This document shows, piece after piece, positions 10,871-62,098 of a stretch of DNA of 64,000 nt. This stretch comes from Tubulanus polymorphus. Its lineage: Eukaryota; Animalia; Nemertea. The number at the start of each line of letters is the position of its first letter. The first letter of the stretch is position 1. A program made the translations under genes and the position numbers. The notes below the pieces were generated by a model. That model was not told where the DNA came from. It worked only from the letters and a program-made list of their open reading frames with translations, and searched no databases. The stretch spans positions 19,718,467 to 19,782,466 of the forward strand of contig NC_134026.1 of the NCBI RefSeq assembly GCF_964204645.1, written 5' to 3'.

Positions 10871-11261
10871 TGTGATTGCAGCTTATGCGGTGCCGAATTT
10901 GCCAGAATGCTTCGTTTGCAGAGCGAGTTGCATTCACATGTGATTCAGCATTAAGTAAGCATACTCTCCTGTTGTGTACATTCGGTGTACAACTGTTACT
11001 AAGTTCCTGGCTAACGTGGGTGAAAACATGGTAAAGTAAGCGTCAAACCAAGCGACTACCCAGTGTTTTCAATAAGAAATTAGCAAGCCAGGTCCCTTTG
11101 AAAAACAGGAGGGTCCCATAATATGTCACAGTCCCGGAAATGAAAGCTGGTTTGAAAAAACAGGCGGGTCCTTTACAAACGACAGACGGGTCTGGGACCT
11201 GGGACCTGGCTCATATTGAGAACACTGCTACCACGTTTTTTGATTGGTCAGACGTTTCCAA

Positions 11262-12594
11262 CAAGAAAATTAATTTTAGAAAATTATTTGACGCCTGCGA
11301 AAAAAATGTATAATTTCTGGGCTAAGCTAATGTGGAATTGCAAATTTGAAATCGAAGTTTTAAGAAATTTGGGGAATGATGAGATTTGGCGATTGGGTAG
11401 ATGATACAGCGGGTCTTCGACTCTAGTAGTGGTTTAAATTTTTTATTGAAAATTCTCAATAATTGATCGCGAACTTGCGACCGACTTCATTTACTTATGC
11501 CTCTAAGCTGGTCTGCAAATTCATTGCCTCCGTGGTTGAAGAACGAGCTCTTCTGATGTCTGCTTCATCATGACTTCGAGCATATCGTGTGGCCTAGCCA
11601 GCCGGCCCTGGCCACCGGGGTTTGGCTGTCACTCGATATCCTAGAGTCTTGAGTCTGGGTGGGTTGAAGTAGACATTGTCATTTAAAATAACATGCTTAT
11701 GTTGTATGAATTACCCGTGTGTCATGAATGTTGTATTAATTTATTTTAAAATTTGTATTTATTGAATTTGGGAATTTTATCCCGAAATTTCAATGTAATA
11801 AGGATCAATAAAGAATTGAATTGAATTGTCACCTAATACACATGCCATCAGAGGACGCGGAGCCGTATATGAATGGTGTATTAATTTATTTTAAAATTTG
11901 TATTTATTGAATTTGGGAATTTTATCCCGAAATTTCAATGTAATAAGGATCAATAAAGAATTGAATTGAATTGTCACCTAATACACATGCCATCAGAGGA
12001 CGCGGAGCCGTATATGATAGCTATGCTATTATAAATTTCTAATCTCACGAAACCTGCATACTCCTTATATCAAACATATTTTCTGAAACGTTTGAATATT
12101 GAAATTATATGTTTACACATTTTCATATTGACCGCTCGTAGCCGCTGATAAAATTCACGCCGGCCCTACACACATCGTAGATAGCTTCGTCATTCCACCG
12201 GCATGCCCACGTCAGGGTCTGACTTTTATATCAGACTTCCAAATCGTGTATATATCCGCCATTTAACCGAATAATCCGATTTACTTATCATTTCTATTTA
12301 TGCCTGCCGCTTCTGATATAATCATACATCCTTTACTATTACAATACGTCTTCTAATGATATTCAATGCAATATAACATTTCGATGTTCAAATATAGGTC
12401 ATTATATAATCACAGGAAGCCATTCTACATCTATGTCAATAATATTTTGCCAGATAGCTTATTTGTGTACACATAGACCTGTGACGTTTTGCACATCGAT
12501 TTACGGCTGTCGTTTGTAAAATGACGCTGAATGGTTAACATTGTTTAGGTTTCATAATGGTAACGTTTTATAAGGCGTCAAAAAAATACTATTG
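11262..12594 (+). repeat. 1.3-kb dispersed repeat (copy A). It contains a 140-bp internal tandem duplication at 11735-11873 and 11876-12015.
   Basis: About 90% identical and collinear with 60784-62098 across >1 kb (e.g. …aattatttgacgcctgcgaaaaa…gctaatgtggaattgcaa…; …gaccgctcgtagccgctgataaaattcacgccggccctac…). Confidence 0.85.
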
Positions 12595-14664: not shown

Positions 14665-16129
14665 GTACGTATCGATTATTCGCTGACACTAGAGGATGTT
14701 TCTGCTGCTATGGACCATGATTGTTGCTCCAAAGTCACCCTCCTAACCAATTGATGAAACGCAATGTCTATGTTGTGACGATGTATAGAGAATCCCATAC
14801 TAATATAACGAAAGATAAAGTCTGAAAAGTTTCCTTTCAGCTATAAATTTATTGATCCAACGTTTCGACTATAACCTAATAGTCATATTCAGGAATCACC
14901 CTCCTTTTTAGGGACTGTGCGGAGCCCCAGCAGGCCATTACGTTCACTTGTTGTTATCCATCAGTCGCTTGGCAGAATCTGGTATTTTTGGAGACTTTTC
15001 ATTATGCTTTGATGTATGATATTTGGTTTATGTATGTATCTGCCCTAGATGTGTCTGCTGCCTGAATGCTGGGCCGATTGGTATCTATATGGCTGGCCTT
15101 TAGTCAATTTTGTTTTGGCAAAATGATTTTTGATTGAAAATGAAGTTTTGATTGGAAATTTTGAAGATGCGAAATTGTCTGATCACTCTAGAGCCAATCA
15201 GATGGCTAGCCCTCGTGGAACAGGAAAATTCATTTTATATCTTGGCACTTTTCTTTGGTAGAATCTCGAAATAAGAGATGGGTATTTTGGGAAGAGGTCT
15301 TTAACATATCAAGCAGGTTTTCGCATTCCCAGTCAATTGTTACACAGACAGTGTGGACATCTTAGTTTCATCAGTTCTCGTATCTAGAGAATGCCAAAGT
15401 AAATATCGAGCATAATAAAAGTCTTGATATTCAGTAATAGTTAGCACTGTCATAACCGTAGGACTCATCTCGCATGGAATTGGGGCTTCGCAGTGTATTG
15501 TTCAAACCACTGGGGAAATTTAGATATTAATTGAAATGTATCAAATATTTCAATTTGTATTGGTGCCTACATATGCATGTTTTTGTAATCACAATCGATA
15601 GCAAAGTTGTAGTCCATGACATTGTCTAATGATTGTAAGGGCGTACTCTTTTATGACCTCCGAAGTCTCCGTCCGAAATCTCCGGTTGGCTCCACACAAA
15701 ATCTGAATCACACCACCTCGACAGAAAGGAGGTTTCGGAGACTCCAAAAAGTCACGTGACCAATAAAAGAGTACGATTGGAGGCAAACGGATTCTCCGAT
15801 CTGATAAAAGAGTTCGCCCTAAGGATTTTCAAGGTCATTGCGTTCCACGCATACATTCACCATAATTAGTAAACATTTCAAATTGCCAACTTATGGGGTT
15901 ATTTTTGGACTTTTCGGCCTAAACCTCATATGTAAACTAATCATTGAAGGTTTGTTTATGGATGTAACAGTATTCTGTAACATAATACAAATTAATATCA
16001 ATTGAAACGCTGAATGAGTCTTAAATATTTCTAGACTGTGTACAGCCAGAAATTAGAGTTATGAAAAATGCCGGGCACCAGAAAGTTGGTTTGGCGTTGT
16101 TAATAAAGTCAATACATCGGAATACCACT

Positions 16130-18640: not shown

Positions 18641-19124
18641 TGATTGAATACCATCGCTAGCTTGGCTCTTTGTATGTCTCGGAAAAGAGCGATTTGCACA
18701 AATTTGTTGTTGAATTTGATGCACTAATTTATGTAGAAATCGAATAATTCTGCGATTGGAGGGATATGCACGCGTCTATAAGTAATTCACGTATGTGTAA
18801 AACGCGTGGGATGCAAAAATGCGGAATGGAATCCGTATTTTTAATATCCGAATTTAAATTAACATTCCATTCGTGTTTATCTTTATATTTATCACACAGT
18901 AAAGCTGTTTAATCCGTATCACTCTGCAGAGGTTTAATGAGAAATCAAGGTCCATTCGTCCATGCTTCATGTCAGATTTATGAGAATTGTTACTTTGAAG
19001 TCATTGTGGGAAATGCATAGTGAACAGAAATTCATATCGTCTTTAGCCAATAAGAAATCGTAATTCATTTATTCAATGATATCCACTGTATGTAATACAA
19101 CAGGCTAACTGATTAGTTCCACAG

Positions 19125-19235
19125 ATTTTCTGGGCGGGTATTACCTTTAAGCCGGGGGCTAACTAAATTAAAAATTTGTTAAGTTGGCCCCCGGGTTAAA
19201 AGTAATACAAGTCTGTAAAACTGGCCCCTGGTTTC
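19125..19235. mobile_element. MITE family B (palindromic, ~115 bp), partial copy
   Basis: Matches CAGGGCCCGGTTTTATAGACTAGTATTACCTTTAACC…GGTTAAAGGTAATACCAGTCTATAAAACCGGGCCC. Other copies at 27552-27650 and 37090-37205. Confidence 0.7.
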
Positions 19236-24367: not shown

Positions 24368-24427
24368 TTTAAGACCTCTTCTATATGCGGCTGTCCATCG
24401 ACCATATCTTGCACAATACCAGTTAAC
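24368..24427 (-). CDS. ERI3: ERI3-like exonuclease coding exon 3
   Basis: Encodes LTGIVQDMVDGQPHIEEVLK (ERI3: LTGIIQAMVDGQPSLQQVLE). Acceptor tctctgtag, donor GTAAGA. Confidence 0.85.
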
Positions 24428-24685
24428 TACAGAGAAAATATACGAAAGGTTCAATGACCTTGAGACTCAAGAAAATCAAAAGTTCCAGAGTTTGGGAAAA
24501 TGAAGCAAAAAGCGCCCACGACATGCTAGGGGATGATGTAGCTAGAAAAGTTATTAAGTTAATAGGTGCCATACATTTGCGCTTAAATATAATTCAGAAT
24601 TCAAAATTTTGCACCAGGATTCAAAAAGTTTTGATATAAATCATATATCGAAAAACTAGGAGTTCAGTCATGTACATCGCATAAA

Positions 24686-26836
24686 CCAGGGAAGTGTGAT
24701 GAGATGGAATACGGACGCTATTGTGCAGCTCTTGTCGAATGTGCGTTGTAATTGCCCTAAAGCCGATAACGGTTCGTCGGCGAGCGCTTTGTTACGTAAT
24801 GCGCCGATAAGCGATAACCAGCGAGATCGGGAATCTCCGTAATAATTCAGTTGTTTCCGAATATCGGTTTTTCATCCCATAATAAACTTATATAAAAATT
24901 CCTCTGTAAACTGGTTAAACTCAACACCTGATTTCCCCTCATCAATTTTAGTCGATCAACTTGTATTCACAATTGTCTTAAATTTAAGTGCCCCCTAGTT
25001 TGTCTCTTAACTGCTTCTCTTTAATCTGTTTTAGCGTGTTACTGTTTCTACGTTAATTTTCCTTTAGTTAGTATCATCTCTGATTACTTGAATTAGTCTC
25101 TTTGTCTCTGGATTGTATATATCTCTCATAATTTCTGTAGTATTCATTATTTCTGAATATGACTATTAGGACATAGACGAAACGTTGAATAAACTACTAA
25201 CATTTTTGGACTTTTTCGTTATCATTGTGGGATTCTCTCTACATCGCTTCAGACGGATATAGGGTTTTATCAATCGTGATATCGGTTCTTTCCGCTGTAT
25301 TAAAATGGCAACGGTTGTCAACGAAATTATAAATGATGACGATTTTGATGATCTATTCTTTGATAGTGACGAATTGGTTCAGATCGATACGGAAATATTA
25401 CGGGAATCCTCTGGATCAGGATCAACTAATTCGGCCGATTCTAGTGAGTGTTATTCCTTTTGAATCAATGAAATATCGGAATAGTTTCCACCTAATTGCA
25501 GGCACTTTATTCTTTCCTTTTCTTTTTCATATAGGTACTTCTCAGGCTCAGCTGAGACTGCGATCTGAACACGAGAAAACACACATACAGGTATTTTTTA
25601 CATTTATTTTTATAATCAATACAATCCTTTTAGGTTATAAAATAATAAACGAATACAGAAAATAATATATAAACATAATATAAAAAATCCAGATAAGTAC
25701 ACGTTAAAATAATAATCATTATTATTATTTTCGCAGGAACACTATATATTTGGAAAAGGCTATGACTGAAGTGATTAACCATCGAGTATTTAAATTCAGT
25801 TCAAATGGAATGGCAGCAGTACATTATGGAAAATCGATCGATAAAATTTTGACTACAAATACGTCGCCGTCCAGACTTGGAATTAACCAGTGGTTTACAT
25901 GTCCATTGTTTTAATTTGATAGTCACAGGGACAGTTTTTTTAACGTTTTTGTTCTTACGCCATTTTTGTAATTTGACACGACACATATTACAGATATATA
26001 TCGGGTACTGTTCAGTATCATCATCAAAATCAATGTTGAACAACTCCTTCACATGGCTTTTGAAATTATTTTTATCGATAGGACGACGATCCGGAGGTTT
26101 CGCATTTTTTCCACACAATCGACAAAGATCCATGACTAAAAACAAGAAAAGGTTAATTAAATGAGATTGCTGATGCTATTTAGGCAACTTGGTTTATATG
26201 GGGGACAATAATTTGTAGGCCTAATGTAAGCGTTATCAAGTAACATTATTATGTAGTAAATACACATTTTAAAGATCATACTTCGTGTATATGTTTGTGT
26301 CGTAACATAGCAACATGACGTCAGAAACGAAAGCTGCGCGAGTCTGGGCCGAAATATTTGACATCTTCAAGGCCCAAATAACGCTAACCCGGAATCGGAA
26401 CGAACTGGCAAAAACATATGTTTAACACATAAAAACAGACTTTAATCACAATATAAATACTTAATGTTCCGATACCGGGTTTCGGAGATATAGAAGAATA
26501 AAAATACATACCTTTTTGGACAAATTTTACGAGAAATTGTTGAATTTCAACCGATTTTCTAAAGAAAAATATGTGTATACACAGCCACTTCCACGTTGTT
26601 CAATGAACTGCAGTGCGCATGCGTAGTATCGATCGCAGAACATTTATCGGGCTAAAACTATTGCGGGTTGTTCTGCGACCGAATCAAAGTTGATGTTGAC
26701 TGGTGTTCAGCTGGTAACACACACTCGATAAGCGTAGCTTACTGCTGTTGCGTTAACCTTTGATGTACGGGCTGAATTGAATAGCCTACATCTGGCAATT
26801 AAAAGCGTCCGTATTCCATCTCATCACACTTCCCTG
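24686..26836. mobile_element. DNA transposon (2151 bp) with perfect 33-bp TIRs CAGGGAAGTGTGATGAGATGGAATACGGACGCT and a 7-bp TSD CATAAAC (24679-24685 / 26837-26843). It is nested in intron 2 of the ERI3-like gene.
   Basis: The left end 24686-24718 equals the reverse complement of 26804-26836. Identical CATAAAC heptamers abut both ends. CAGGG termini are hAT-like. A 7/8-bp TSD is compatible with the P or hAT superfamilies. Confidence 0.65.
25801..26145 (-). CDS. ORF inside the TIR transposon, encoding a C4 treble-clef zinc-binding module (MDLCRLCG…x40…YICNMCRVKL). Possibly a transposon DNA-binding domain.
   Basis: 114-aa ORF. The Cys pairs are spaced C-x2-C…(40)…C-x2-C, resembling ZAD/THAP-like N-terminal zinc modules. 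No catalytic transposase domain was found, so the element is probably non-autonomous. Confidence 0.35.
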   Translation of the reverse strand: MFLVMDLCRLCGKNAKPPDRRPIDKNNFKSHVKELFNIDFDDDTEQYPIYICNMCRVKLQKWRKNKNVKKTVPVTIKLKQWTCKPLVNSKSGRRRICSQNFIDRFSIMYCCHSI

Positions 26837-27364
26837 CATAAACTAAGCGTCCAATGACACCATGCTTATCACTTGGTAAAATGCCGTTAATCAATGACTT
26901 TGATACTCATTACAATCAAAATTATATAGCTCTCAGAATTCAAGCCAAAAATTATCTTTTTGGGCACAAAAAAATGTTACAGGACGGCCATCTCGTGTCC
27001 GCCCGACCCAATTTCTCATAATGATAGGCCTTAAATCTAAAAGTTTCCCTTGAAAACCTCAAAAATGTCAAAAAATGGCTAACAACAATGGCTACCAGTC
27101 AGCCATCTTGACTTTGAGCGGGACAGTTTTTTGGCCGCAGATGTGTCTAGGGTAGACATGTACAAACCAAATAATCCATATCTGATTCTTCAAAACTTTC
27201 AAAAATAACTGGATATGTTGAATGGATGCACAGACCGATAGACAATAGAAAGTGAATGCAATAGCCTGCTTGCTGGGTCTGCCACCATGTAGTCTAACCC
27301 TTGTCTGGTAAATTCAGAATACCCAGTCACCTTTAGTGACTTGTATTCTGCATGTTTTACATAC

Positions 27365-27481: not shown

Positions 27482-27551
27482 CTAGAAAATATGATAATAT
27501 GCTGAAATGAGTGGGCCAATAAGAATAAGATGCTGAAAAATACATAATATA

Positions 27552-27650
27552 CAGGGCCTGGTTTTATAGACTGGTATTACCTTTAACCCGGGGGCTAACT
27601 AAACTCATTTTCAATTGAGTTACTCCCCGGGTTTAAGGTAATACCAGGCT
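27552..27650. mobile_element. MITE family B copy (right end truncated)
   Basis: CAGGGCCTGGTTTTATAGACTGGTATTACCTTTAACCCGGGGGCTAACTAAA…GGGTTTAAGGTAATACCAGG. Confidence 0.7.
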
Positions 27651-30208: not shown

Positions 30209-30320
30209 GGGCCCAGTTTCACAAAAAGGTTTAACTCTTAAATCGATTTTTTAATTTCTTCATGAATTCAGTTTATCTTAAATCGATTAAGGCCTTAATC
30301 CTTTTCGTGAAACTGGGCCC
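30209..30320. mobile_element. MITE family A (~112 bp, perfect 21-bp TIR GGGCCCAGTTTCACAAAAAGG). It is inserted inside a family-H hairpin repeat, forming a composite element.
   Basis: The TIR is read directly. A second copy at 40731-40810 sits at the identical position of another H copy (both after AGTGCTGG). The H copy at 37925 lacks the insertion. Confidence 0.75.
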
Positions 30321-30684: not shown

Positions 30685-32694
30685 CTGAGGAAGAAAACAG
30701 AATTCACACCATCTCGATGGCAGACTCTGAAAATGCAAATCCATCAAATAATATTGTACCAGTACTCAATAATAATAACCTGCAGCAGCGGCAACAGGAT
30801 TTAGGCGTTGTCCGTTGCAGAAACAATTTGAACGAATGCGTCAATATAGAAGACGGTGCAGCTGAATCAAACCAAAATTCGGATGAAACGACGCACGACG
30901 AGACAAAGGAATCAACGAATAATAATTTCCAACAGATATCGACTGCGGAAACTGCGAACGATAATGCCTCGCTATCTTCTGACGACGGTTACAAGATACA
31001 AAATAATCACGCGATGGACGTCACGGACTACGCTAATTTCGTAAACGCGTTTCGATTCGAAAACGGTTCACCTGCGGGTGGTGGCGACGGTTCGGAGCGC
31101 GAGAAAGCCGACGCAGCCGTCGACCAAGCTCCGACGAATAAGATCGAAGCGGCGATTGGTATCGAAACCGAAGATCGGAACGATGATTTGCGTCCACTGA
31201 GCGATGCATCAGGCAAAATATCAAAAAATGAAATTAACGTTAACGCCGGCGCTTCGCCCGATCTTAGTTTAATCGAAACAATGGCGAGCATGTCCGTCGA
31301 GCTTGACCCGAAAAACGTCGCCTCTTCGGACGGCGCGCAGCGTGATGAAACTACCGAAGTAGCCGACGAGTGGGGTATGAATGATGTCGATAACGCTCAA
31401 TTGAATATAGATGGCGCAAGTACCGCGAATAAATCGGATAATATTCGCGACGATACGGAACGGTTAACCGATGTTAAAACGGAACCGCCGGTTTCAGCAG
31501 TGGCGTTCGACGGCACGGCTATCGCCACTGCCGAGGAGACATCGGTGAAAAAGAACATGGCCGAATTCAACGCAAACAACGTCGCAGCCGTAGGCTTCAT
31601 CAATACGAGTGACGTAGGCGTCGATGACGCCGAAATGGACGCGTATTTATCAGATTTGATGATTCCCGATAACGTTCCGTCTGCCCCACCCGCAACCGAG
31701 CACGCGACGACATCGCTCGCCAAGGAGATAACGAACACCGCGGAAGAACCGACCTCGGAGACTCGGTCACGACTAGTTGCTGAAAACGCCGCAGATGAGT
31801 CCGTCGATGCAGTCGCCTCTGAGGACATCAAATCAACGGAGGGTAACATTGGGAATCGCGGCGTCGACTCTCGTTTACCGCTGCAATCACCGTGCCCGTA
31901 TTCGTATCCGATCACTACTCCGATTGAGAGTCCGCCGCGACTCGCCTCACCGCAGAATAATTCGTCGGAAAAAGTGGAGTATCTCGACAGTAAAATCGAC
32001 CGAGCGGACGTTACGACTGCGACTTTTTCGCGATCGGATGATGACGCGTTCTTTCGAGGCGATCCTCGAAAAATCAACGAACTCGTCGACGTGATACGTA
32101 GCGATTCTCGAGAAGTACCGACCTGCATTCGGCCTAAAACGGCCGTTACCACAGTGACAGCCGCGACGCCCGTGCCGGCTGTATCATCGGTCGCAGCGGT
32201 GCGGATACCGCGGCCTAATAGTCTGCTTGGATTATCGAAACCGATTTTACCGAACGAAATGTCGTGTTTCGTGGAGAAGCGCGACAAAGACGGGGATGCA
32301 GCGTCCGGGGTTCGCGAAGATGTCGCGGACAGCTCGAGAACCGTCGTCTGCGTCAGAGATATTGACGATGATTCTATGCAGCCGGCACCGTCGTCGTTGT
32401 CCCCGTTGCGACCCCCCGGGTTAAGCCGGCCGGCCGCGCGGCCGAATTCGTTTCCGATGCCGTCGCCGACGAACAACAAACTAAAACGTCCGACGAGTTT
32501 GAATTTGATGCCGCGTGACTTCAATAGCGTTTCGGCGGCTTCCGGGAACGACGACGAATCGGGTGGCGCCGATTTATCTTCGGATCTATCTAATGATCAA
32601 ACTACTCCCCCGTCATCGCAACAATTACAGCAGCAGCAGCAGCAATCTGAATCGACCCCGGACGTAGAACCAACTCCTGATATCGATGTCATGG
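30685..32694 (+). CDS. ZFYVE9: SARA-like exon 2: a 2-kb exon encoding ~670 aa of Ser/Asp/Glu/Asn/Ala-rich, low-complexity, probably disordered sequence ending in a polyQ
   Basis: Acceptor ttacttatag at 30684 is phase-compatible with exon 1. The 661-aa ORF 30717..32702 is open. Donor GTGAGT at 32695, phase 1. Vertebrate ZFYVE9 likewise has a giant poorly conserved 5' exon. Confidence 0.85.
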
Positions 32695-33262
32695 GTGAGT
32701 AATGTATGAGTTTGAATAAGCGATGGATGCTGACCTTATTCGATTTCAAGAAAGGCAGAGGGCAAGTGGAAGTCAACGCCGCATGAGGCAATAGAATAGC
32801 TCTTAAAATGCACCACGATATGCCCCATGAGTCCGGGGTAGTATAAAATCTGCAAGTTTTTGAATGTCAATTTGCCCTGAAATTTCACGGGAAAATGAAA
32901 AATATTAGACCAATACCTAAAAAGGTTTGGATTTATGATAGTCCTCTGTATTTCTGAAAATGAGACTATTTTCCCAATTAGTTTACTTTCTGGGTGCCCA
33001 TTTAATTGTATTTTGGGGGTTCCCCCTCCCTGAGTCAGATTCCACCCCTGCCTGTGCACCTGTTTGTGCATGCATTATTCGAGAAGGGACTTGACTTAAA
33101 TGGCAGATATGATCATACTTCAAATCAGGAATTTTGTAGGCCTAAAAATCAACCTCAACTTGGTTCGGACTTATATGGCAGTTATTAGGGTTAAAAAGTA
33201 GCAGTATCCCGGTAAAATTTTAATACGGTACGTTCTAAACCGAGTGTTACGAACATTTTCAG

Positions 33263-34559: not shown

Positions 34560-35285
34560 GACTATGGTGGCTGATAAGGGCCATAGCGTAAAATTCCTGG
34601 TATGTTAATGAGGGCGCCAGAACGCCAAAACGAAAAAAAAATGTCCAATTTTCTCTGAAAGTTTGTTTTGGCGCGCCAAAACAAAGAAATTTCAATTTTG
34701 GCACCCCCGCCAAAACAACGAAAAACGTCCAATTTTCTCTGAAAGTTCGTTTTGGCGCGCCAAAACGGAAAATATTCCATTTTATATAATAAATATTCCA
34801 TTCCAAAACGAACTTTCAACCACGTAAAATAATTGTATATATACGTAAAATAATTGTATATATGCAAATTTATGCAAATTACACACAAGATCAACGCGCC
34901 AAATTGAAAAATAATTTTTACTGTGGTTGAATGCTTGTTTAACCGCGCCAAGATGGAATTTTCATTGTTTTGGCGTGCCAAAACCAACTTTCAGAGAAAT
35001 TTCAACAGTTTTCGTTGTTTTGGCGGGAGCGCCAAAACATAAGTTCGTTTTGGCGGGGGGCGCCAAAACGTAAGTTCATTTTGGCGGGGGCGCCAAAACG
35101 AACTTTCAGAGAAAATTGGACGTTTTTCGTTGTTTTGGCGGGGGCGCCAAAACGGAATTTTCTTTGTTTTGGCGCGCCAAAACAAACTTTCAGAGAAAAT
35201 TGGACGTTTTTTTTCGTTTTGGCGTTCTGGCGCCCTCATTAACATACCAGGAATTTTACGCTATGGCTTTATCAGCCACCATAGA
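34560..35285. mobile_element. Foldback-type element. The two long inverted arms (34565-34800 and 34965-35280) are built from 50-56-bp subrepeats (…cgccaaaacgaactttcagagaaaattggacgtttttcgttgttttggcg…). A 160-bp AT-rich spacer separates them.
   Basis: The outermost ~50 bp form a near-perfect inverted repeat (ggctgataagggccatagcgtaaaattcctggtatgttaatgagggcgcc / ggcgccctcattaacataccaggaattttacgctatggctttatcagcc). The ORFs 34513-35245 on both strands are artefacts of the repeat. Confidence 0.7.
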
Positions 35286-37089
35286 TGACTGATTGGTTCA
35301 AGAAAATATTGATTTCATTACGAATTGAATACCAAGCATGCATACTTTAGAAAATTTGGTCATTAGAGAAAAGAAAGCTCAGAAATTTTCGTGGCCACTT
35401 GCGTAGCTCGTCTGAAAAAAAATTGGCTAATTTGTCATGTATGATTTGGATTTATTAAAAGATGACTCGGACAATTTGGCTAGCGAAGACTCGCAACGTC
35501 AAGGTAATGAATCCGTTATCTCGGTTATGCCAGCATGATTGACGATTAATTAACAGATATTCATTGATTGATTCGTTAATTGATTTGATGAACTAATTAA
35601 ATAAAGATCTCGTCCATGATGATTGTGATGAAGATGATGATAACGACAACAATGTCGTTCGCAATACCGACAGGGTTCATACTTAATTGATTCCTTGAGA
35701 AATCCTCTAAATTGAAAAATTATTTTGAAACTCCTTTTTTTCGGATTTAAAACATTTTCATTAGTCCATGTCTTTCTGTCTACGCACCCAGTGCATAATA
35801 CAAATTACCCATTAACCGCAATCGCACAAGTGCTCTTTACCCGGGCCAAAAAGCTTTCGATCCCCCAAAGAAATCAGAAAATTAAGCTTAGTTTTGGTGT
35901 ATTTCAAAGCAATTATCAGCATTGATAGAATATTGACATCCACTCTGGTAGGGGCTGTAGATATTTTATAAGGGGTGGCTGATTTTCAGAGGGTTGTGGA
36001 TGTAAAAATGAAAGTGGTCGACACCCCTTTATAACCTATTGCGGAGAACACTAGTTATGGGGGTACGCCCCTCAAAATTTTTGTGACCTGAATCTGCGCC
36101 TGGATTGCATTTGATGTTAACAAGCGAGTGATATACCGGTACATGTGAACACACTCTGATTAAATAGATTTGCAAAGCTGGACCAAATTGTTGCAATTGC
36201 GGCATTTGTTTCCGGAAAATAGCACAGAGATATTATTTCAACATTCGCTTATGTTGATTAGTCCTGCTGATTGATTGTGCGATTTGTCCATTTTCTTAAC
36301 CGACCGTTGTGTACCTTTTCGGATTTCGATATTTTCTACATCCTAAAATTCTTGAATACCGATTCTGCAGTAGTAGTATGAACCCTGAATAATCGGAAAT
36401 CAAATTTCGAAAGAAGAGATAAACATATATCAGTGAAAAACGTCGATTTCTGATGAATACTTAGTTCTCAATCTTGTGCATGGTGGGAAACGGGGTCTCA
36501 GCATAATCAAATAGTATAATATCATTATCACTACTATAATTCTAATATTTCGACTGGAAGTCTATCAGAACATCGTATATTTTCATAGCATGAGGAAATT
36601 CTCTTGATTATATCGGCTTTAATAACGTAAAATAAGAAGACCCGCAATTTAATTTTCTTTTTTGGGGGGGGCAAAGGGATAATTTTGAAGTATTTATGGA
36701 AACCTACTACAACACTCACTAAACTAACATACCGCTATCTAGTAGGCTAATTGGATAAAATCATTGAAAATATTAAGAAAAAAAGGATCTTCATCATGAA
36801 ACTTCGTCGCTTCGATGCAGATTGTATTTCTTAAACTAAATATGAGGATAAGCGATGTATGCCCCCTAACCGAGAGTGGTGTCACGGACTTGTGGTGGCC
36901 ATCTTCCGTCAGCTGGGATTTGAACCACGCCGCATAGGTCGGGGATTTGAAAAATTTTACAACAAACCTGGAAAATGTTTTATTGATCACGTGTGTCTTA
37001 ATCGATACGTGATTCATGAAAGGAGGAATACATTGTAACATCTTAAAGCAAGAAATTCCTCGGATTTTGTTTTACAACAAGGGAATACT

Positions 37090-37205
37090 CAGGGCCCGGT
37101 TTTATAGACTAGTATTACCTTTAACCTGTAGGCTAACTTAGTTTATTTTCAATTGAGTTAACCCCCAGGTTAAAGGTAATACCAGTCTATAAAACCGGGC
37201 CCAGG
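37090..37205. mobile_element. MITE family B (full copy, near-perfect palindrome)
   Basis: CAGGGCCCGGTTTTATAGACTAGTATTACCTTTAACC…GGTTAAAGGTAATACCAGTCTATAAAACCGGGCCCAGG. Confidence 0.8.
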
Positions 37206-57029: not shown

Positions 57030-57690
57030 AAGTTGAATAATACATGGCATTGAATAATACAATAACTTAGTATTTCTATATTATATTTGTATCTACGCAT
57101 ATTTTGTTACCACAATCGATTGCAAAGATGTAGCTCATGACATCGTCTATTTTTGTGGTGAGTTTCAAGGAAATTAGTTATTCTATATGGTCACCAGGGG
57201 GCGTTGAATAGTAGAATTACTTAGTATTTCCTTATTAGATTGGTACCTAGGGATATTTTGTTACCATGATCAATTGCAAAGTTGTAGTTCATGACATGAT
57301 CTACGATTGTGGTGAGTTTCAAGGTCATTGGGTTTTGCATATGGTCACCAGGGGGCGTTGAATAGTAGAATAACTTAGTATTTCCTTATTAGATTGGTAC
57401 CTAGGGATATTTTGTTACCATGATCTATTGCAAAGTTGTAGTTCATGACATGATCTACGATTGTGGTGAGTTTCAAGGTCATTGGGTTTTGCATATGGTC
57501 ACCAGGGGGCGTTGAATAGTAGAATAACTTAGTATTTCCATATCAAATTGGTAACGAGGCATATTTTGTTATCACAATCAATTACAAAATCATAGCTTCT
57601 GACATATTCTATGATTGTGGTGAGTTTCAAGGTCATTGGTTTTTGTATATGGTCACCAGGGGGCGTTGAATATTGAAATTGTTAGATTGT
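57030..57690. repeat. Minisatellite, about 4.5 tandem copies of a ~128-bp unit (…gttaccacaatcgattgcaaag…gtggtgagtttcaagg…tggtcaccagggggcgttgaatagtagaat…)
   Basis: Direct tandem repetition. A related fragment lies at 15560-15640. Confidence 0.85.
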
Positions 57691-58244
57691 TGAGCATTTG
57701 AAACCGCACTTCCCAAGTGGGCATGGTGTCCCTGGACCCCTAGTTGTATGACTTAATTGTATGACTTAATTTGTGTAAAGGCAGGAGGCGGATGAACCCT
57801 TTTATGGTTTTTATGATTTTATGGATGAACCCTGCCATGTTATCCAAGATGGCCGTCACAGTCATGTTGAAACCCATTTTGTGAGATACCCTATTAAAAT
57901 ATGCGTTTTCTACCGCATGGTTCTCACACACGAAGGATATTCTATACGTATATACGTCTAGTTTTGAATTGATGAATTTTTATATCTTTATTCGTCTAAG
58001 TATATTGCATTAAATAATGATATTCTGTTGGTGAGTTGTTCTCATTACTAGTTACATATATTTTTAGCTGACAATCAATACTCAAAAGTTTCATCTCATG
58101 ATGTCGGCGATCTCAAAAAGTATCTGCCTCCGTGACTGAGTTTGATTATCGGCAATAAACAATTGTAGATTTCCAATAAATCAAATTCTGTATATATGGA
58201 TTTATGTTTGCATTTGGGATAATGACCAACTGAATAAGATATCT

Positions 58245-59965: not shown

Positions 59966-60783
59966 AATCTCATCAATTCGATCATATATTTGAATACTGC
60001 AAAATTTCTAATCGATGACGATGCATTTTTAAAAAGATTAATCGATTGATTGGTTCGATGGGAAATCCATAGGTAGTTTTTTTCTTCGGTTTAGTCCCGT
60101 TCCGTCTATATATAGTCTCCGTTTCCATTCATTTTCGAATGAATTCTAGCAATGATACGGTTCCCGTAACAGCATTTAACCAGTGATTCCGCCCTAGTGT
60201 AGACCCGCCCTATATAATTGAATGATAGGCCTATTGTTTACGACTGTGTCCCGCCCGAGAAAATAAATCTTAATGATGTTTTTACAGTCTGGAGAATTTA
60301 AGGACATAAATACGATAGGTGCAACTCTTGCAAACTTCGTAACTTATCAGATACAATGGTAATTCATTAGGTCTTATATTTCATCTTTGCTGAATTCAAA
60401 GTTAGGAGATGGATTAAATAAACAGTACATACACAAAGATATGCCGGACTGCTTCGTTGTATTCAACTGTGGATAGTGAGAGCTGGATATCTGAAGCAAT
60501 GGAAAAGAACTCTGTTCAATGTATTATCCATTAGAAGGATGATTTAAATTGCCACTGACAGGTGAATTACTACCATAAGAACCAAGGTTGCCGCAAAATT
60601 CCGGTTGGCTAAATTCATACATAATTTTACGATGCAATTTAACAGCACTACACAATAGAAGAAGAGAATGTCATTATGGGTTCGAGGATGTAAATTGAAA
60701 ATTTTTCTTATATATTTTCTTGCTGCACAAATTAGTTTGTGAGAAATAACCGACCCGTATAGGGATCAAGCAGTAAGTACGAA

Positions 60784-62098
60784 CAAGAAAATTAACTTTA
60801 ATAAATTATTTGACGCCTGCGAAAAAATGTAGAATTTCTGGGATAAGCTAATGTGGAATTGCAAAGTTTTAAGAAATTTGGGGAATTATGAGATTTGGCG
60901 ATTGGGTAGATGATACAGTCTTCGACTGGTCTAATTTAAAAAAAAAATTGTCAACTTGTGACCGACTTCGATTCACTTTTGCTCTAAGCTGGTCTGCAAC
61001 TTCATTGCCTCCATGGTTGAAGAAAGAGCTCTTCTGATGTCTGCTTCATCATGACTTCGAGTAGCCAGCCGGCCCGGTCCCAGGGCCCGGTTTGGTTGTC
61101 ACTCGATATCCTAGACTTGAGTCTGGGTTGAAGTAGACATCGTCATTTAAATAACTTATTCATGTTATTCTGTATGAATAACCCATGTGTCTTGTATTTT
61201 GTATTTTCTTATTCTAAAATTTGTAACTTTATTGAATTAGGGAATTTCATCCCGGAATTTCAATGTAATAAGGATCAATAAAGTATTATGCCATCAGTGG
61301 ACGCGGAGCCTTCAATTCCCTTTCGTTTTTTTTTTCCCTGGGTGCTTGCGACAGCGGCCTAAAGGCTTTGCTTGGCCCACACTGAAAGCTACTGCTCTCT
61401 CTCTCTCTTTTTATAATTGTGCTTTGTTTAAAAAAATTGTAAATTTTATTGTTTGTTTTCTCTCAACCTGTGTACATAGCCTGTCATGCTTTCTGTGAAA
61501 TAAATTTGAACTTGAACTTGAACTTGAACAGGTATGCTATTATAGATTGCTAATCTCATGAAACCTGCATACCCCTAATATCGAACATATTTTCTAAAAC
61601 ATTTGAATATTGAAATTATTTGTTTACATGTTTTTATATAGACCGCTTGTAGCCGCCGATGAAATTCACGCCGGCCCTACTCAGATCGAAGATAGCTTCG
61701 TCATTCCACTAGCATCCCCATGTCAGGGTCTGACTTTTATATCAGACTTCCAAATCGTGTATACATCCGCCATTCAACCGAATAATCCGATTTACTTATC
61801 ATTTCTATTTATGCCTGCCGCTCCTGATATAATCATACATCCTTTAATATTACAATACCTCTTATCATGATATTCAATGCAATATAACATTTCGACGTTC
61901 AAATAGAGGTCATTATATAATCACAGGGAGCCATTCTACATCTTTATCAATAATATTTTGCCAAATAGCTTGTATGTGTACACATAAACCTGTGACGTTT
62001 TGCACATCGATTTACGGTTGTCGTTTGTAAAATGACGCTGAATGGTTAACATTGTTTAGGTTTCATAATGGTAACGTTTTATAAGGCGTCAAAAAATA
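60784..62098 (+). repeat. 1.3-kb dispersed repeat (copy B). It has a 230-bp private insertion (61310-61540) containing a (cttgaa)4 motif.
   Basis: See 11262-12594. Confidence 0.85.

Follow-up and report, generated by a model that had tools for sequence, protein, structure and literature searches.

What kind of mobile element interrupts the second intron of an ERI3-like gene in the nemertean Tubulanus polymorphus, and what is the short zinc-finger protein that it encodes? The element lies in a window of 64,000 nucleotides (contig NC_134026.1, positions 19,718,467 to 19,782,466), and all coordinates given here are those of the window. We conclude that it is very probably a non-autonomous, internally deleted cut-and-paste copy of the P superfamily (P element/THAP9-type), from a marine-invertebrate lineage headed by a ZAD-fold module that is homologous to the N-terminal region (NTR) of RAG1.

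The insertion and its host intron

The host is a 3'-5' exonuclease gene on the minus strand, with exons at 28114-27824, 27481-27365 (exon 2), 24426-24367 (exon 3) and about 24222-24127. The joined exons match Pfam RNase_T (7e-19) and, in the PDB, ERI1 exoribonuclease 3 (7k05, 1e-39). Splice-site context and exon homology place intron 2 at 24427-27364 on the minus strand, bounded by exons 2 and 3. The insertion accounts for 2157 of the 2938 bp of this intron, which before the insertion was about 781 bp long.

The ends of the element are 33-bp inverted repeats, the left one at 24687-24719 on the plus strand (CAGGGAAGTGTGATGAGATGGAATACGGACGCT; the 3' end relative to the transposase remnant) and the right one at 26804-26836 on the minus strand (the 5' end). 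They are complementary at 33 of 33 nt, or 97% over 36 nt, and direct reading, repeat finding and pattern search concur on this. The arms open CAGGGAAG..., with the terminus CAGGG. The window contains exactly two copies of a 32-mer of the repeat, whereas 100 shuffles give an expectation of zero.

Directly abutting the repeats on the outside stand identical heptamers, CATAAAC, at 24680-24686 (left) and at 26837-26843 (right). From base composition, a match at 7 of 7 positions would arise by chance with a probability of about 1e-4. Between these duplications the element measures 2150 bp. The empty site before insertion would have read ...GTACATCG CATAAAC TAAGCGTCC..., and GTACATCGCATAAACTAAGCGTCC represents this empty site in intron 2 of the ERI3-like gene. 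The G at 24679 is the same as the terminal G of the right arm, so that an 8-bp duplication, GCATAAAC, is formally possible. However, this costs one base of the inverted repeat, and 7 bp is the better length because three related elements have unambiguous 7-bp duplications.

The undamaged state of the repeats and duplications suggests that the insertion is young. One copy of the element was seen, within the window. A 21-mer of the inverted repeat has no match in viral, metagenome and prokaryote-genome collections, to which the source genome does not belong, and neither a second copy nor an autonomous partner with this repeat came to light there. An exact look-up of the neighbouring ORF of 661 residues and a search for homologues of exon 1 of the ERI3-like gene likewise gave no match. 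For genome annotation, the element is a clean and datable candidate for an insertion polymorphism in the ERI3-like intron. The perfect 33-bp repeats, the flanking heptamers and the ERI3-like intron had all been proposed in a first-pass annotation, and all three are borne out: the repeats are absent from shuffled sequence, the heptamers are in place on both sides, and the exon matches identify the host gene.

The truncated transposase frame and its relatives

Only one ORF of the element has homologues. It lies on the minus strand at 25801-26133 and encodes 110 residues from the first ATG at 26133, the stop codon being included in the span; from a TTG start it encodes 114 residues (25801-26145). 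Residues 1-77 (26133-25903) form a C4 zinc module, with C-x2-C knuckles at residues 4-7 and 48-51, and the last 33 or so residues are a non-homologous tail running to the first stop. It had been called the only substantial ORF, which is nearly right: there is also a plus-strand ORF of 110 residues at 25333-25665, for which Pfam gave no family match.

When the ORF was compared with proteins by word index, no candidate emerged, and an exhaustive HMMER search was therefore needed. This found 25 homologues among 1.84 billion representatives, the best at 2e-10 with 45% identity, and in these relatives the module is N-terminal. The relatives are not ZAD proteins of the host: those of 580-860 residues that were examined are P-element/THAP9-type transposases of echinoderms, in which the module replaces THAP at the N-terminus; residues 1-77 of the ORF share 30-45% identity with the N-terminal ends of P-type transposases. 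Shorter relatives come from annotated proteins of a hemichordate and of a mussel. The same zinc module heads the echinoderm transposases and occurs in a hemichordate protein and in a mussel protein annotated as RAG1. Named entries include 'Transposable element P transposase [Holothuria leucospilota]' and 'RAG1 [Mytilus coruscus]', and further relatives come from Acanthaster, Patiria, Strongylocentrotus, Apostichopus, Anneissia and Saccoglossus. The TNP-like RNase H and GTP-binding domains PF21787, PF21788 and PF21789 are present in seven long relatives, and the family profile matches the Drosophila P transposase (6p5a, 3e-17) and RAG1 (1.7e-7). No close relative of the ORF was found in the protein collection or in metagenomes, neither of which includes the source genome; a back-translated scan of metagenomes gave 287 pattern matches, none of them confirmed.

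The elements that encode the relatives at loci L002, L003 and L004 are about 8.4 kb long, have inverted repeats opening CATGGATATA... and are flanked by perfect 7-bp duplications (ATATAGG, TTAAGAA and TTCTCAG). In three intact relatives the inverted repeats are roughly 24-35 bp long and start CATGG.... A second, convergent gene in the relatives encodes an ING-type PHD finger. A parallel with RAG2 that goes beyond the convergent orientation was considered for this gene and rejected, since the finger is not of RAG2 type. Against Pfam, the conserved second ORF of the relatives gave a single weak, sub-threshold match to Tnp_P_element_C, in one of four members.

Comparison with these proteins locates the deletion. 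The alignment of the ORF to its relatives stops at ...KLKQW (residue 77), before a conserved H...C-x2-C motif, and tblastn with 25 related proteins confines homology in the window to 26136-25873, equivalent to transposase residues 1 to about 90. The breakpoint of the internal deletion is accordingly placed at approximately 25870-25903, where homology to full-length transposases stops. Past this point the third conserved motif (H-x3-4-C-x2-C) and all downstream sequence are missing. A six-frame Pfam scan and tblastn with the 25 proteins found no remnant of an RNase H or GTP-binding domain in the window, as the first-pass annotation had noted of the catalytic domain; its absence is expected for a non-autonomous copy. 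Within the part that is left, the ORF has lost none of the residues that are constant across the family alignment: C4, R5, L6, C7, G8, K21, D39, P44, C48, C51, K54, W58 and K60.

The P-type homologues of the ORF, the shared architecture and the loss of the catalytic core together identify an internally deleted, non-autonomous P-superfamily element. The placement leans on one short domain and on architecture, because the nearest transposase is 45% identical over 75 residues and its inverted repeat has little in common with the present one beyond CA-GG. P-superfamily termini follow the consensus CANRG, and target-site duplications in the superfamily are reportedly 7-8 bp long. Here the duplication CATAAAC is of 7 bp, the inverted repeats span tens of bp (33) and start CA (CAGGG), and residual P-type transposase coding sequence is preserved in residues 1-77 (E down to 2e-10). 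The RNase H-like core with its GTP-binding insertion is missing from the element and present in its homologues. The N-terminal THAP DNA-binding domain of classical P/THAP9 elements is lacking; in this element, as in those relatives that were examined, the module instead resembles zf-AD and the RAG1 NTR. The element can serve as a seed for defining a P-type family characterised by inverted repeats of 33 bp, duplications of 7 bp and a ZAD-like N-terminus.

The rest of the element is less informative. The left subterminal region (24720-24860) has a G+C content of about 40-52%, compared with 15-41% for most of the interior, and contains three (C)CGATAA motifs, at 24763, 24804 and 24812, which are candidate transposase-binding sites. 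The right subterminal region (26134-26803, minus strand) covers the 670 bp from the inverted repeat to the ATG and is presumably, by analogy, the promoter and leader of the transposase gene; CGATAA occurs in it at 26644 and 26726, and relatives have their ATG about 1.4-1.6 kb inward from the equivalent end. In all, the element has seven CGATAA motifs, against 1.6 expected from the window, and five of the seven are in the two subterminal regions.

Between these regions, 25149-25290 is a fragment of an unrelated dispersed repeat (70-87% identity to window positions 14740-14896), which could be either filler DNA or a nested piece. An acidic ORF of 52 residues (MATVVNEIINDDDFDD...; 25305-25463, plus strand) points inward from the left end and occupies the place where autonomous relatives begin their second, convergent PHD-finger gene. 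Its position suggests that it may be a remnant of the first exon of that gene. Its similarity to the PHD exon of L006 extends over 10 residues and is not significant (pairwise E=0.098); it has no Pfam match, and PHD is absent from all six frames. Rfam gave no match anywhere in the window. In blastn and tblastx comparisons with four related elements, only the zinc module and AT-rich noise were matched, and for the remaining 1.9 kb or so no relation to those elements could be detected.

Predicted fold of the zinc module and proposed history of the copy

The only domain found in the six-frame Pfam scan of the element is zf-AD (PF07776). The match is borderline, as the isolated ORF scores 31.5 bits against a gathering cutoff of 28, and 26.9 bits when embedded in a 716-residue frame translation. 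For the ORF, AlphaFold generates a model with pLDDT 87 and pTM 0.74, and each of the top seven PDB fold matches found by Foldseek is a ZAD crystal structure (TMq 0.54-0.69, probability up to 0.99, E 0.04-0.4). The module is thus predicted with good confidence to adopt the ZAD fold, a C4 zinc knuckle with a C-terminal helix. A ZAD/THAP-like architecture had been suggested from the letters of the DNA, with a check of the ORF against THAP, zf-AD and BED profiles. The ZAD half is upheld by the zf-AD match and the predicted fold; THAP gave no match at E<=10, and the six-frame scan contains no BED. No C2H2 array was found in the element or in ten relatives scanned.

The second affinity of the module is with RAG1. 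The N-terminal region of RAG1 is characterised by three motifs: (H-x3-L-x3-)C-R-x-C-G and D-x3-I-h-P-x2-F-C-x2-C (Kapitonov & Jurka 2005, PMC1131882), and W-x-p-h-x(3-6)-C-x2-C. The ORF contains the first as CRLCG (residues 4-8) and the second as D39-x3-Y-P-x2-I-C-x2-C (residues 39-51). The H-x3-L prefix of the first is missing because the ORF begins three residues ahead of its first Cys. The third is absent from the ORF, and nothing of the form H...C-x2-C follows ...KLKQW. A profile built from nine N-termini, including the ORF, matches an N-terminal RAG1 chain (21wb, 4.7e-9) and residues 98-260 of full-length RAG1 (6oem, 1.4e-7); profiles that include the ORF match RAG1 residues from about 98 to about 215, and relatives pass Pfam PF12560. 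The link from the ORF to RAG1 is transitive, since the ORF alone has no sequence match in the PDB at E<=10.

The first-pass annotation spoke of a DNA-binding module. This is an assumption: the ZAD domains whose structures are solved serve in dimerisation, and the region of RAG1 that is homologous to the module is not its DNA-binding part.

On the basis of these observations, and by analogy with the biology of the Drosophila P element, we propose the following history. A full-length member of the family in the same genome would have supplied transposase in trans. This would have bound the inverted repeats and subterminal sites and excised the element, which would then have reinserted where the ERI3-like gene was cut in intron 2 with a stagger of 7 bp. 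The interior would have been lost earlier, through interrupted gap repair after excision, as in Drosophila P-element deletion derivatives; such repair would explain the foreign repeat fragment in the interior. Most likely the short ORF is a mere by-product. If it were expressed, its product could interfere with the full-length enzyme, as it would combine a dimerisation-type module with no catalytic core, in the manner of KP-type derivatives.

It could be argued that this last effect is the reason why the ORF persists: that it is expressed, and maintained by selection because its ZAD-fold module represses transposition of the family by dimerising with full-length transposase or by occupying the partners of that enzyme. 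There is a precedent in the KP elements of Drosophila, which are internally deleted P copies coding for an N-terminal repressor. The ORF is intact from its ATG with every family-invariant column kept, 670 bp of element sequence is kept upstream, and the predicted fold resembles crystal structures of dimerisation domains. However, an intact ORF is to be expected without selection in a single young copy, the C-terminal 33 residues are read-through junk, and KP acts largely through the THAP DNA-binding domain, which this ZAD-headed family lacks. A regulatory role is thus credible but unlikely.

A wider reading is that the element is a living representative of the lineage that donated the zinc region at the N-terminus of RAG1, and that this lineage belonged to the P superfamily, not to Transib; it would have a ZAD module for dimerisation, autonomous members with a PHD gene, and here a dominant-negative ORF resembling KP. 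Taken as a whole we regard this as quite unlikely.

The P-type core of the family and the homology of its N-terminal module to the RAG1 NTR are shown by the searches above. Together with the predicted ZAD fold, they link N-RAG-TP, the non-core region of RAG1 and the ZAD domains of insects, which are usually treated apart. This family context notwithstanding, the copy described here is an ordinary non-autonomous transposon.

The ORF could also be a ZAD-type zinc-finger exon captured from the host by transduplication (Pack-type), in which case it would say nothing about the superfamily of the element. It does pass Pfam zf-AD, a domain most familiar from the arthropods, where host transcription factors carry it, and the element holds at least one foreign repeat fragment. 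However, HMMER found only 25 relatives, of which the seven long ones examined are P-type transposases that have the module at their N-terminus and are encoded between inverted repeats; none of ten relatives scanned has a C2H2 array; and the ORF resembles the transposase gene of the relatives in its place close to one end and its inward orientation. Capture, which the first-pass annotation offered as its second choice, is therefore very improbable and is dropped, the homologues being N-termini of P/THAP9-type transposases. The same homologues support its first choice, a non-autonomous derivative in which the zinc module from the transposase N-terminus was retained. Membership of the hAT superfamily, whose terminal motif is YARNG and whose Ac-type ends resemble CAGGG, is barely tenable despite the G ahead of both heptamers that would allow the 8-bp duplication, since that duplication would shorten a perfect inverted repeat by its outermost base pair, the relatives of the ORF are P-type and not hAT transposases, their elements make 7-bp duplications in three of three cases, and no frame encodes a BED or hAT dimerisation domain. 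It was rejected on both duplication length and domain content, and of the earlier alternative 'P-element or hAT' only the P element is left, in keeping with the 7-bp duplications and CA-GG termini of the relatives.

Comparison with known systems

The ZAD proteins of arthropods, such as M1BP, Pita and Grauzone, share with the present ORF a zinc knuckle (C-x2-C...C-x2-C) that leads into a long helix, and the predicted fold superposes on their crystal structures (TM 0.54-0.69), with weak Foldseek E-values (0.04-0.4) and an identity to solved ZADs of only 15-21%. The arthropod domains differ in context, in that the present module heads a transposase, has no attached C2H2 fingers and has its relatives in deuterostomes and a mollusc.

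According to papers that cite its original description (Panchin & Moroz 2008), N-RAG-TP of Aplysia is likewise a protein borne by a mobile element that has the RAG1 N-terminal motifs C-R-x-C-G and D-x3-I-h-P-x2-F-C-x2-C. The same two motifs are found in proteins of sea urchin and lancelet that resemble the RAG1 N-terminus (Kapitonov & Jurka 2005, PMC1131882). The present ORF differs in having neither the third motif (W-x-p-h-x3-6-C-x2-C) nor a RING finger.

A closer parallel in architecture is provided by the two-gene P elements of echinoderms and hemichordates (loci L001-L006, with proteins such as Apostichopus XP_071855332 and the Holothuria P transposase). They have a homologous N-terminal module (30-45% identity), a 7-bp duplication, inverted repeats of similar length starting CA(T/G)GG, and a transposase gene that begins near one end and points inward. 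They are about 8.4 kb long, with a full RNase H and GTP-binding core and a convergent ING-type PHD gene, whereas the present element is 2.15 kb long and has neither; at the DNA level there is no similarity between them.

The Drosophila P element differs in its 8-bp duplication, compared with 7 bp here, in having THAP at the N-terminus in place of a ZAD-fold, RAG1-NTR-like C4 module, in the sequence of its inverted repeats, which is unrelated save for the initial CA, and in the phylum of its host. In organisation, its deletion derivatives (KP and others) are nevertheless like the present element: both are cut-and-paste elements with perfect inverted repeats of about 31-33 bp and a deleted interior, and both keep the two ends and, of the transposase ORF, the 5' part that encodes the N-terminal module. 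The derivatives depend for their movement on a full-length element, and the same would presumably be true here.

Boundaries and genomic setting

The two arms of the element (24687-24719 and 26804-26836) are perfectly complementary over 33 nt, CAGGGAAGTGTGATGAGATGGAATACGGACGCT, as seen both by direct reading of 24600-26920 and with a repeat finder, and the complementarity extends to 36 nt at 97%. The inverted-repeat 32-mer occurs exactly twice in the 64 kb, also with three mismatches allowed, and not once in 100 dinucleotide shuffles. The heptamer CATAAAC abuts both arms on the outer side (24680-24686 and 26837-26843). Each copy is preceded by a G, the right-hand one being the final base of the perfect inverted repeat, and 7 bp is therefore the natural reading of the duplication. 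The element proper is 2150 bp long, and its ends (44-52% G+C) are richer in G+C than most of the interior (15-41%). The perfect repeats and identical flanks described in the first-pass annotation are thus confirmed by direct reading, repeat finder and shuffle control, and this is a cleanly bounded, real transposon insertion. Since both repeats and duplications are intact, we infer that it is recent. Searches of viral, metagenomic and prokaryotic DNA collections with the inverted repeat and with the ORF discussed below gave no confirmed match.

The nesting of the element in an intron of an ERI3-like gene is also correct. Minus-strand exons at 28114-27824, 27481-27365, 24426-24367 and about 24222-24127 have canonical splice sites and when joined match an RNase_T-type exonuclease (7e-19), with human ERI1 exoribonuclease 3 as the best solved relative (1e-39). 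The protein collection gave no match to this gene or to its neighbour. Intron 2 is 2938 bp long, of which the element, oriented like the host gene, takes up 2157 bp. Intron 1 holds one copy of a short palindromic MITE-like repeat with ends GGGCCC(A/G)GTTT..., of which there are several copies at 79-88% identity (19110-19230, 27546-27650, 37084-37202, 30209-30320).

Other repeats and ORFs occur in the window. A dense foldback at 34580-35267 may be another inverted-repeat element; its outer inverted arms are perfect over 61 nt, arms of 128 nt match at 95%, direct repeats lie inside it, and it overlaps a 141-aa ORF (34562-34987, minus strand). At 11260-12318 and 60782-61829 there are two copies, in direct orientation and about 89-98% identical, of a dispersed repeat of about 1 kb, the first copy containing a 145-bp tandem duplication (11724-12013, 99%). 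A tandem array at 57046-57807 has about five copies of a 154-bp unit, with identity falling from 90% to 60%. A 661-aa low-complexity ORF (30717-32702, plus strand), overlapped by a 375-aa antisense ORF, lies in a local G+C island (51-53%, against 31-44% in the rest of the window) and has no exact record in the gene-position collection.

The truncated ORF, its relatives and its predicted fold

The element has 21 ORFs with a length of 30 aa or more, and homologues were found only for that at 25801-26145 (minus strand), whose length is 114 aa when read from a TTG and 110 aa when read from the ATG at 26133. When all of the element was scanned against Pfam in six frames, the sole match was zf-AD, located on this ORF; taken alone, the ORF reaches 31.5 bits, above the gathering cutoff of 28. 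No signal for THAP, BED, DDE or RNase H was obtained in any of the six frames. Of the three profiles suggested earlier for the ORF, zf-AD is thus retained and THAP and BED are not.

A word-indexed protein search with the ORF gave no match. An exhaustive HMMER search of 1.84 billion cluster representatives (E<=1e-3) returned only 25 proteins, the best with an E-value of 2e-10 and 45% identity; the longer ones align at or near the N-terminus. The Pfam domains that characterise P-element/THAP9-type transposases are present in seven of the long relatives (583-860 aa): the TNP-like RNase H N domain, the RNase H C domain and, as an insertion, the GTP-binding domain. At the N-terminus these seven match zf-AD below threshold, and some match PF12560 (RAG1 importin-binding region) above it. 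The named relatives are from the echinoderms Apostichopus, Holothuria (annotated 'Transposable element P transposase'), Anneissia, Acanthaster, Patiria and Strongylocentrotus, and from Saccoglossus and Mytilus, the last a 248-aa fragment annotated 'RAG1'.

The catalytic part of the family profile matches the solved Drosophila P transposase (6p5a, 3e-17), and the N-terminal part matches RAG1. A profile of the N-termini only, including the window ORF, matches the solved RAG1 N-terminal fragment (21wb, 4.7e-9) and residues 98-260 of full-length RAG1 (1.4e-7). The family alignment contains three motifs: H-x3-L-x3-CRxCG, D-x3-IHP-x2-FC-x2-C and W/F-x2-H-x3-4-C-x2-C. These were noted by Kapitonov and Jurka (2005; PMC1131882) in RAG1 and in sea urchin and lancelet 'separate proteins of unknown function', and passages in later papers ascribe the RAG1 N-terminal region to the transposon N-RAG-TP (PMC8355894, PMC8374863).

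The window ORF retains motifs 1 and 2 and every invariant residue of the alignment, and its homology to the family ends after ...VTIKLKQW (residue 77), ahead of motif 3. With tblastn of all 25 relatives against the whole window, the match is confined to 26136-25873, and the rest of the interior resembles none of four related elements in DNA or in protein. Judged by these comparisons, the catalytic core has been lost, and the breakpoint is near 25870-25903. The absence of a catalytic domain described in the first-pass annotation is confirmed, and its single substantial ORF is nearly correct, there being also a 110-aa plus-strand ORF (25333-25665) with no family match.

An AlphaFold model of residues 1-77, from an alignment of 13 family members, has pLDDT 87 and pTM 0.74. 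Its best seven Foldseek matches in the PDB are all Drosophila ZAD crystal structures (M1BP, CG2712, Pita, Grauzone), with TM-scores of 0.54-0.69, probabilities up to 0.99 and E-values of 0.04-0.4; such weak E-values are usual for a domain this small. The module had been called 'ZAD/THAP-like', of which the ZAD half is supported by Foldseek and by the zf-AD score and the THAP half is dropped. ZADs are dimerisation domains, and the label 'DNA-binding module' for the retained piece is therefore unsupported. The zf-AD pass, the ZAD-fold prediction and the RAG1 N-terminal profile match come together on this module of about 80 residues (25903-26133, minus strand; alignments A2 and A5), and they suggest that the N-terminal C-x2-C motifs of RAG1 may form a ZAD-type fold.

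Related two-gene elements and the origin of this copy

On the basis of the 77-residue domain and the architecture, the element is very probably a non-autonomous, internally deleted member of the P superfamily, with a ZAD-fold, RAG1-NTR-like N-terminus. The proposal of a non-autonomous derivative that kept its N-terminal zinc module is borne out, in that it has a P-type transposase head and no catalytic core.

The autonomous relatives are two-gene elements in which a P-type transposase faces a PHD-finger gene. At six of six related loci (L001, L005 and L006; L002, 4581-12967; L003, 4599-12945; L004, 6376-14778) the second gene is convergent with the transposase and consists of an exon for an ING-type PHD finger (PDB ING1 match, 2e-17) plus a conserved ORF that is 314-355 aa long. 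The latter has the motifs EEQxLRYVAGF..YKL.KHF, VNRGGLF.V.DEV and GEKSLR, and belongs to no secure family, with only a weak Tnp_P_element_C match in one of four members. The PHD finger is absent from the window element. A 52-aa acidic ORF (25305-25463, plus strand) is equivalent to the second gene in place and orientation, with no significant similarity to the PHD-gene exons.

Inside the element, the stretch 25149-25290 is 70-87% identical to 14740-14896 elsewhere in the window, which identifies it as a fragment of an unrelated dispersed repeat; the two copies are inverted, with a 45-nt core 87% identical and about 70% identity over 118 nt. CGATAA occurs seven times in the element against 1.6 expected per 2150 bp from the window frequency. 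Five of the seven copies, as (C)CGATAA, cluster in the two subterminal regions (24763, 24804, 24812, 26644, 26726), and we conjecture that they are candidate transposase-binding sites.

By analogy with P-element biology, a full-length family member would supply transposase in trans, and this would recognise the element ends, excise the element and insert it where the target is cut with a 7-bp stagger. The internal deletion would have come from interrupted gap repair after an earlier excision, which can add filler DNA. The retained module is predicted to have a dimerisation-type fold, as might suit an inhibitory role like that of KP, an internally deleted Drosophila P element encoding an N-terminal repressor; we consider such a role improbable, and the simplest view of the short ORF is that it is a remnant.

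The interest of the element lies mostly in its family context, and less in this copy. The closest transposase, P0001, is represented by three genes in one ENA assembly, in copies 99.3-99.6% identical over about 8.0-8.4 kb. Its elements end in inverted repeats, about 34-35 bp long, whose arms differ by one small indel, CATGGATATATTATAAGAAGGATAGTGAACCAAC, and two copies have clean 7-bp duplications (ATATAGG, TTAAGAA). In a second family (protein 56% identical) the two ends agree throughout the 24 bp that were compared, CATGGATATATAACTAAGAAGGAT, with the 7-bp duplication TTCTCAG. The first-pass annotation had left the choice between P and hAT, and between 7 and 8 bp; hAT and an 8-bp duplication are ruled out, and P and 7 bp kept, by the layout of the P-type relatives. 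All three intact relatives have a 7-bp duplication, inverted repeats starting CA-GG and an inward transposase gene near one end, and in each of these respects the window element is laid out identically.
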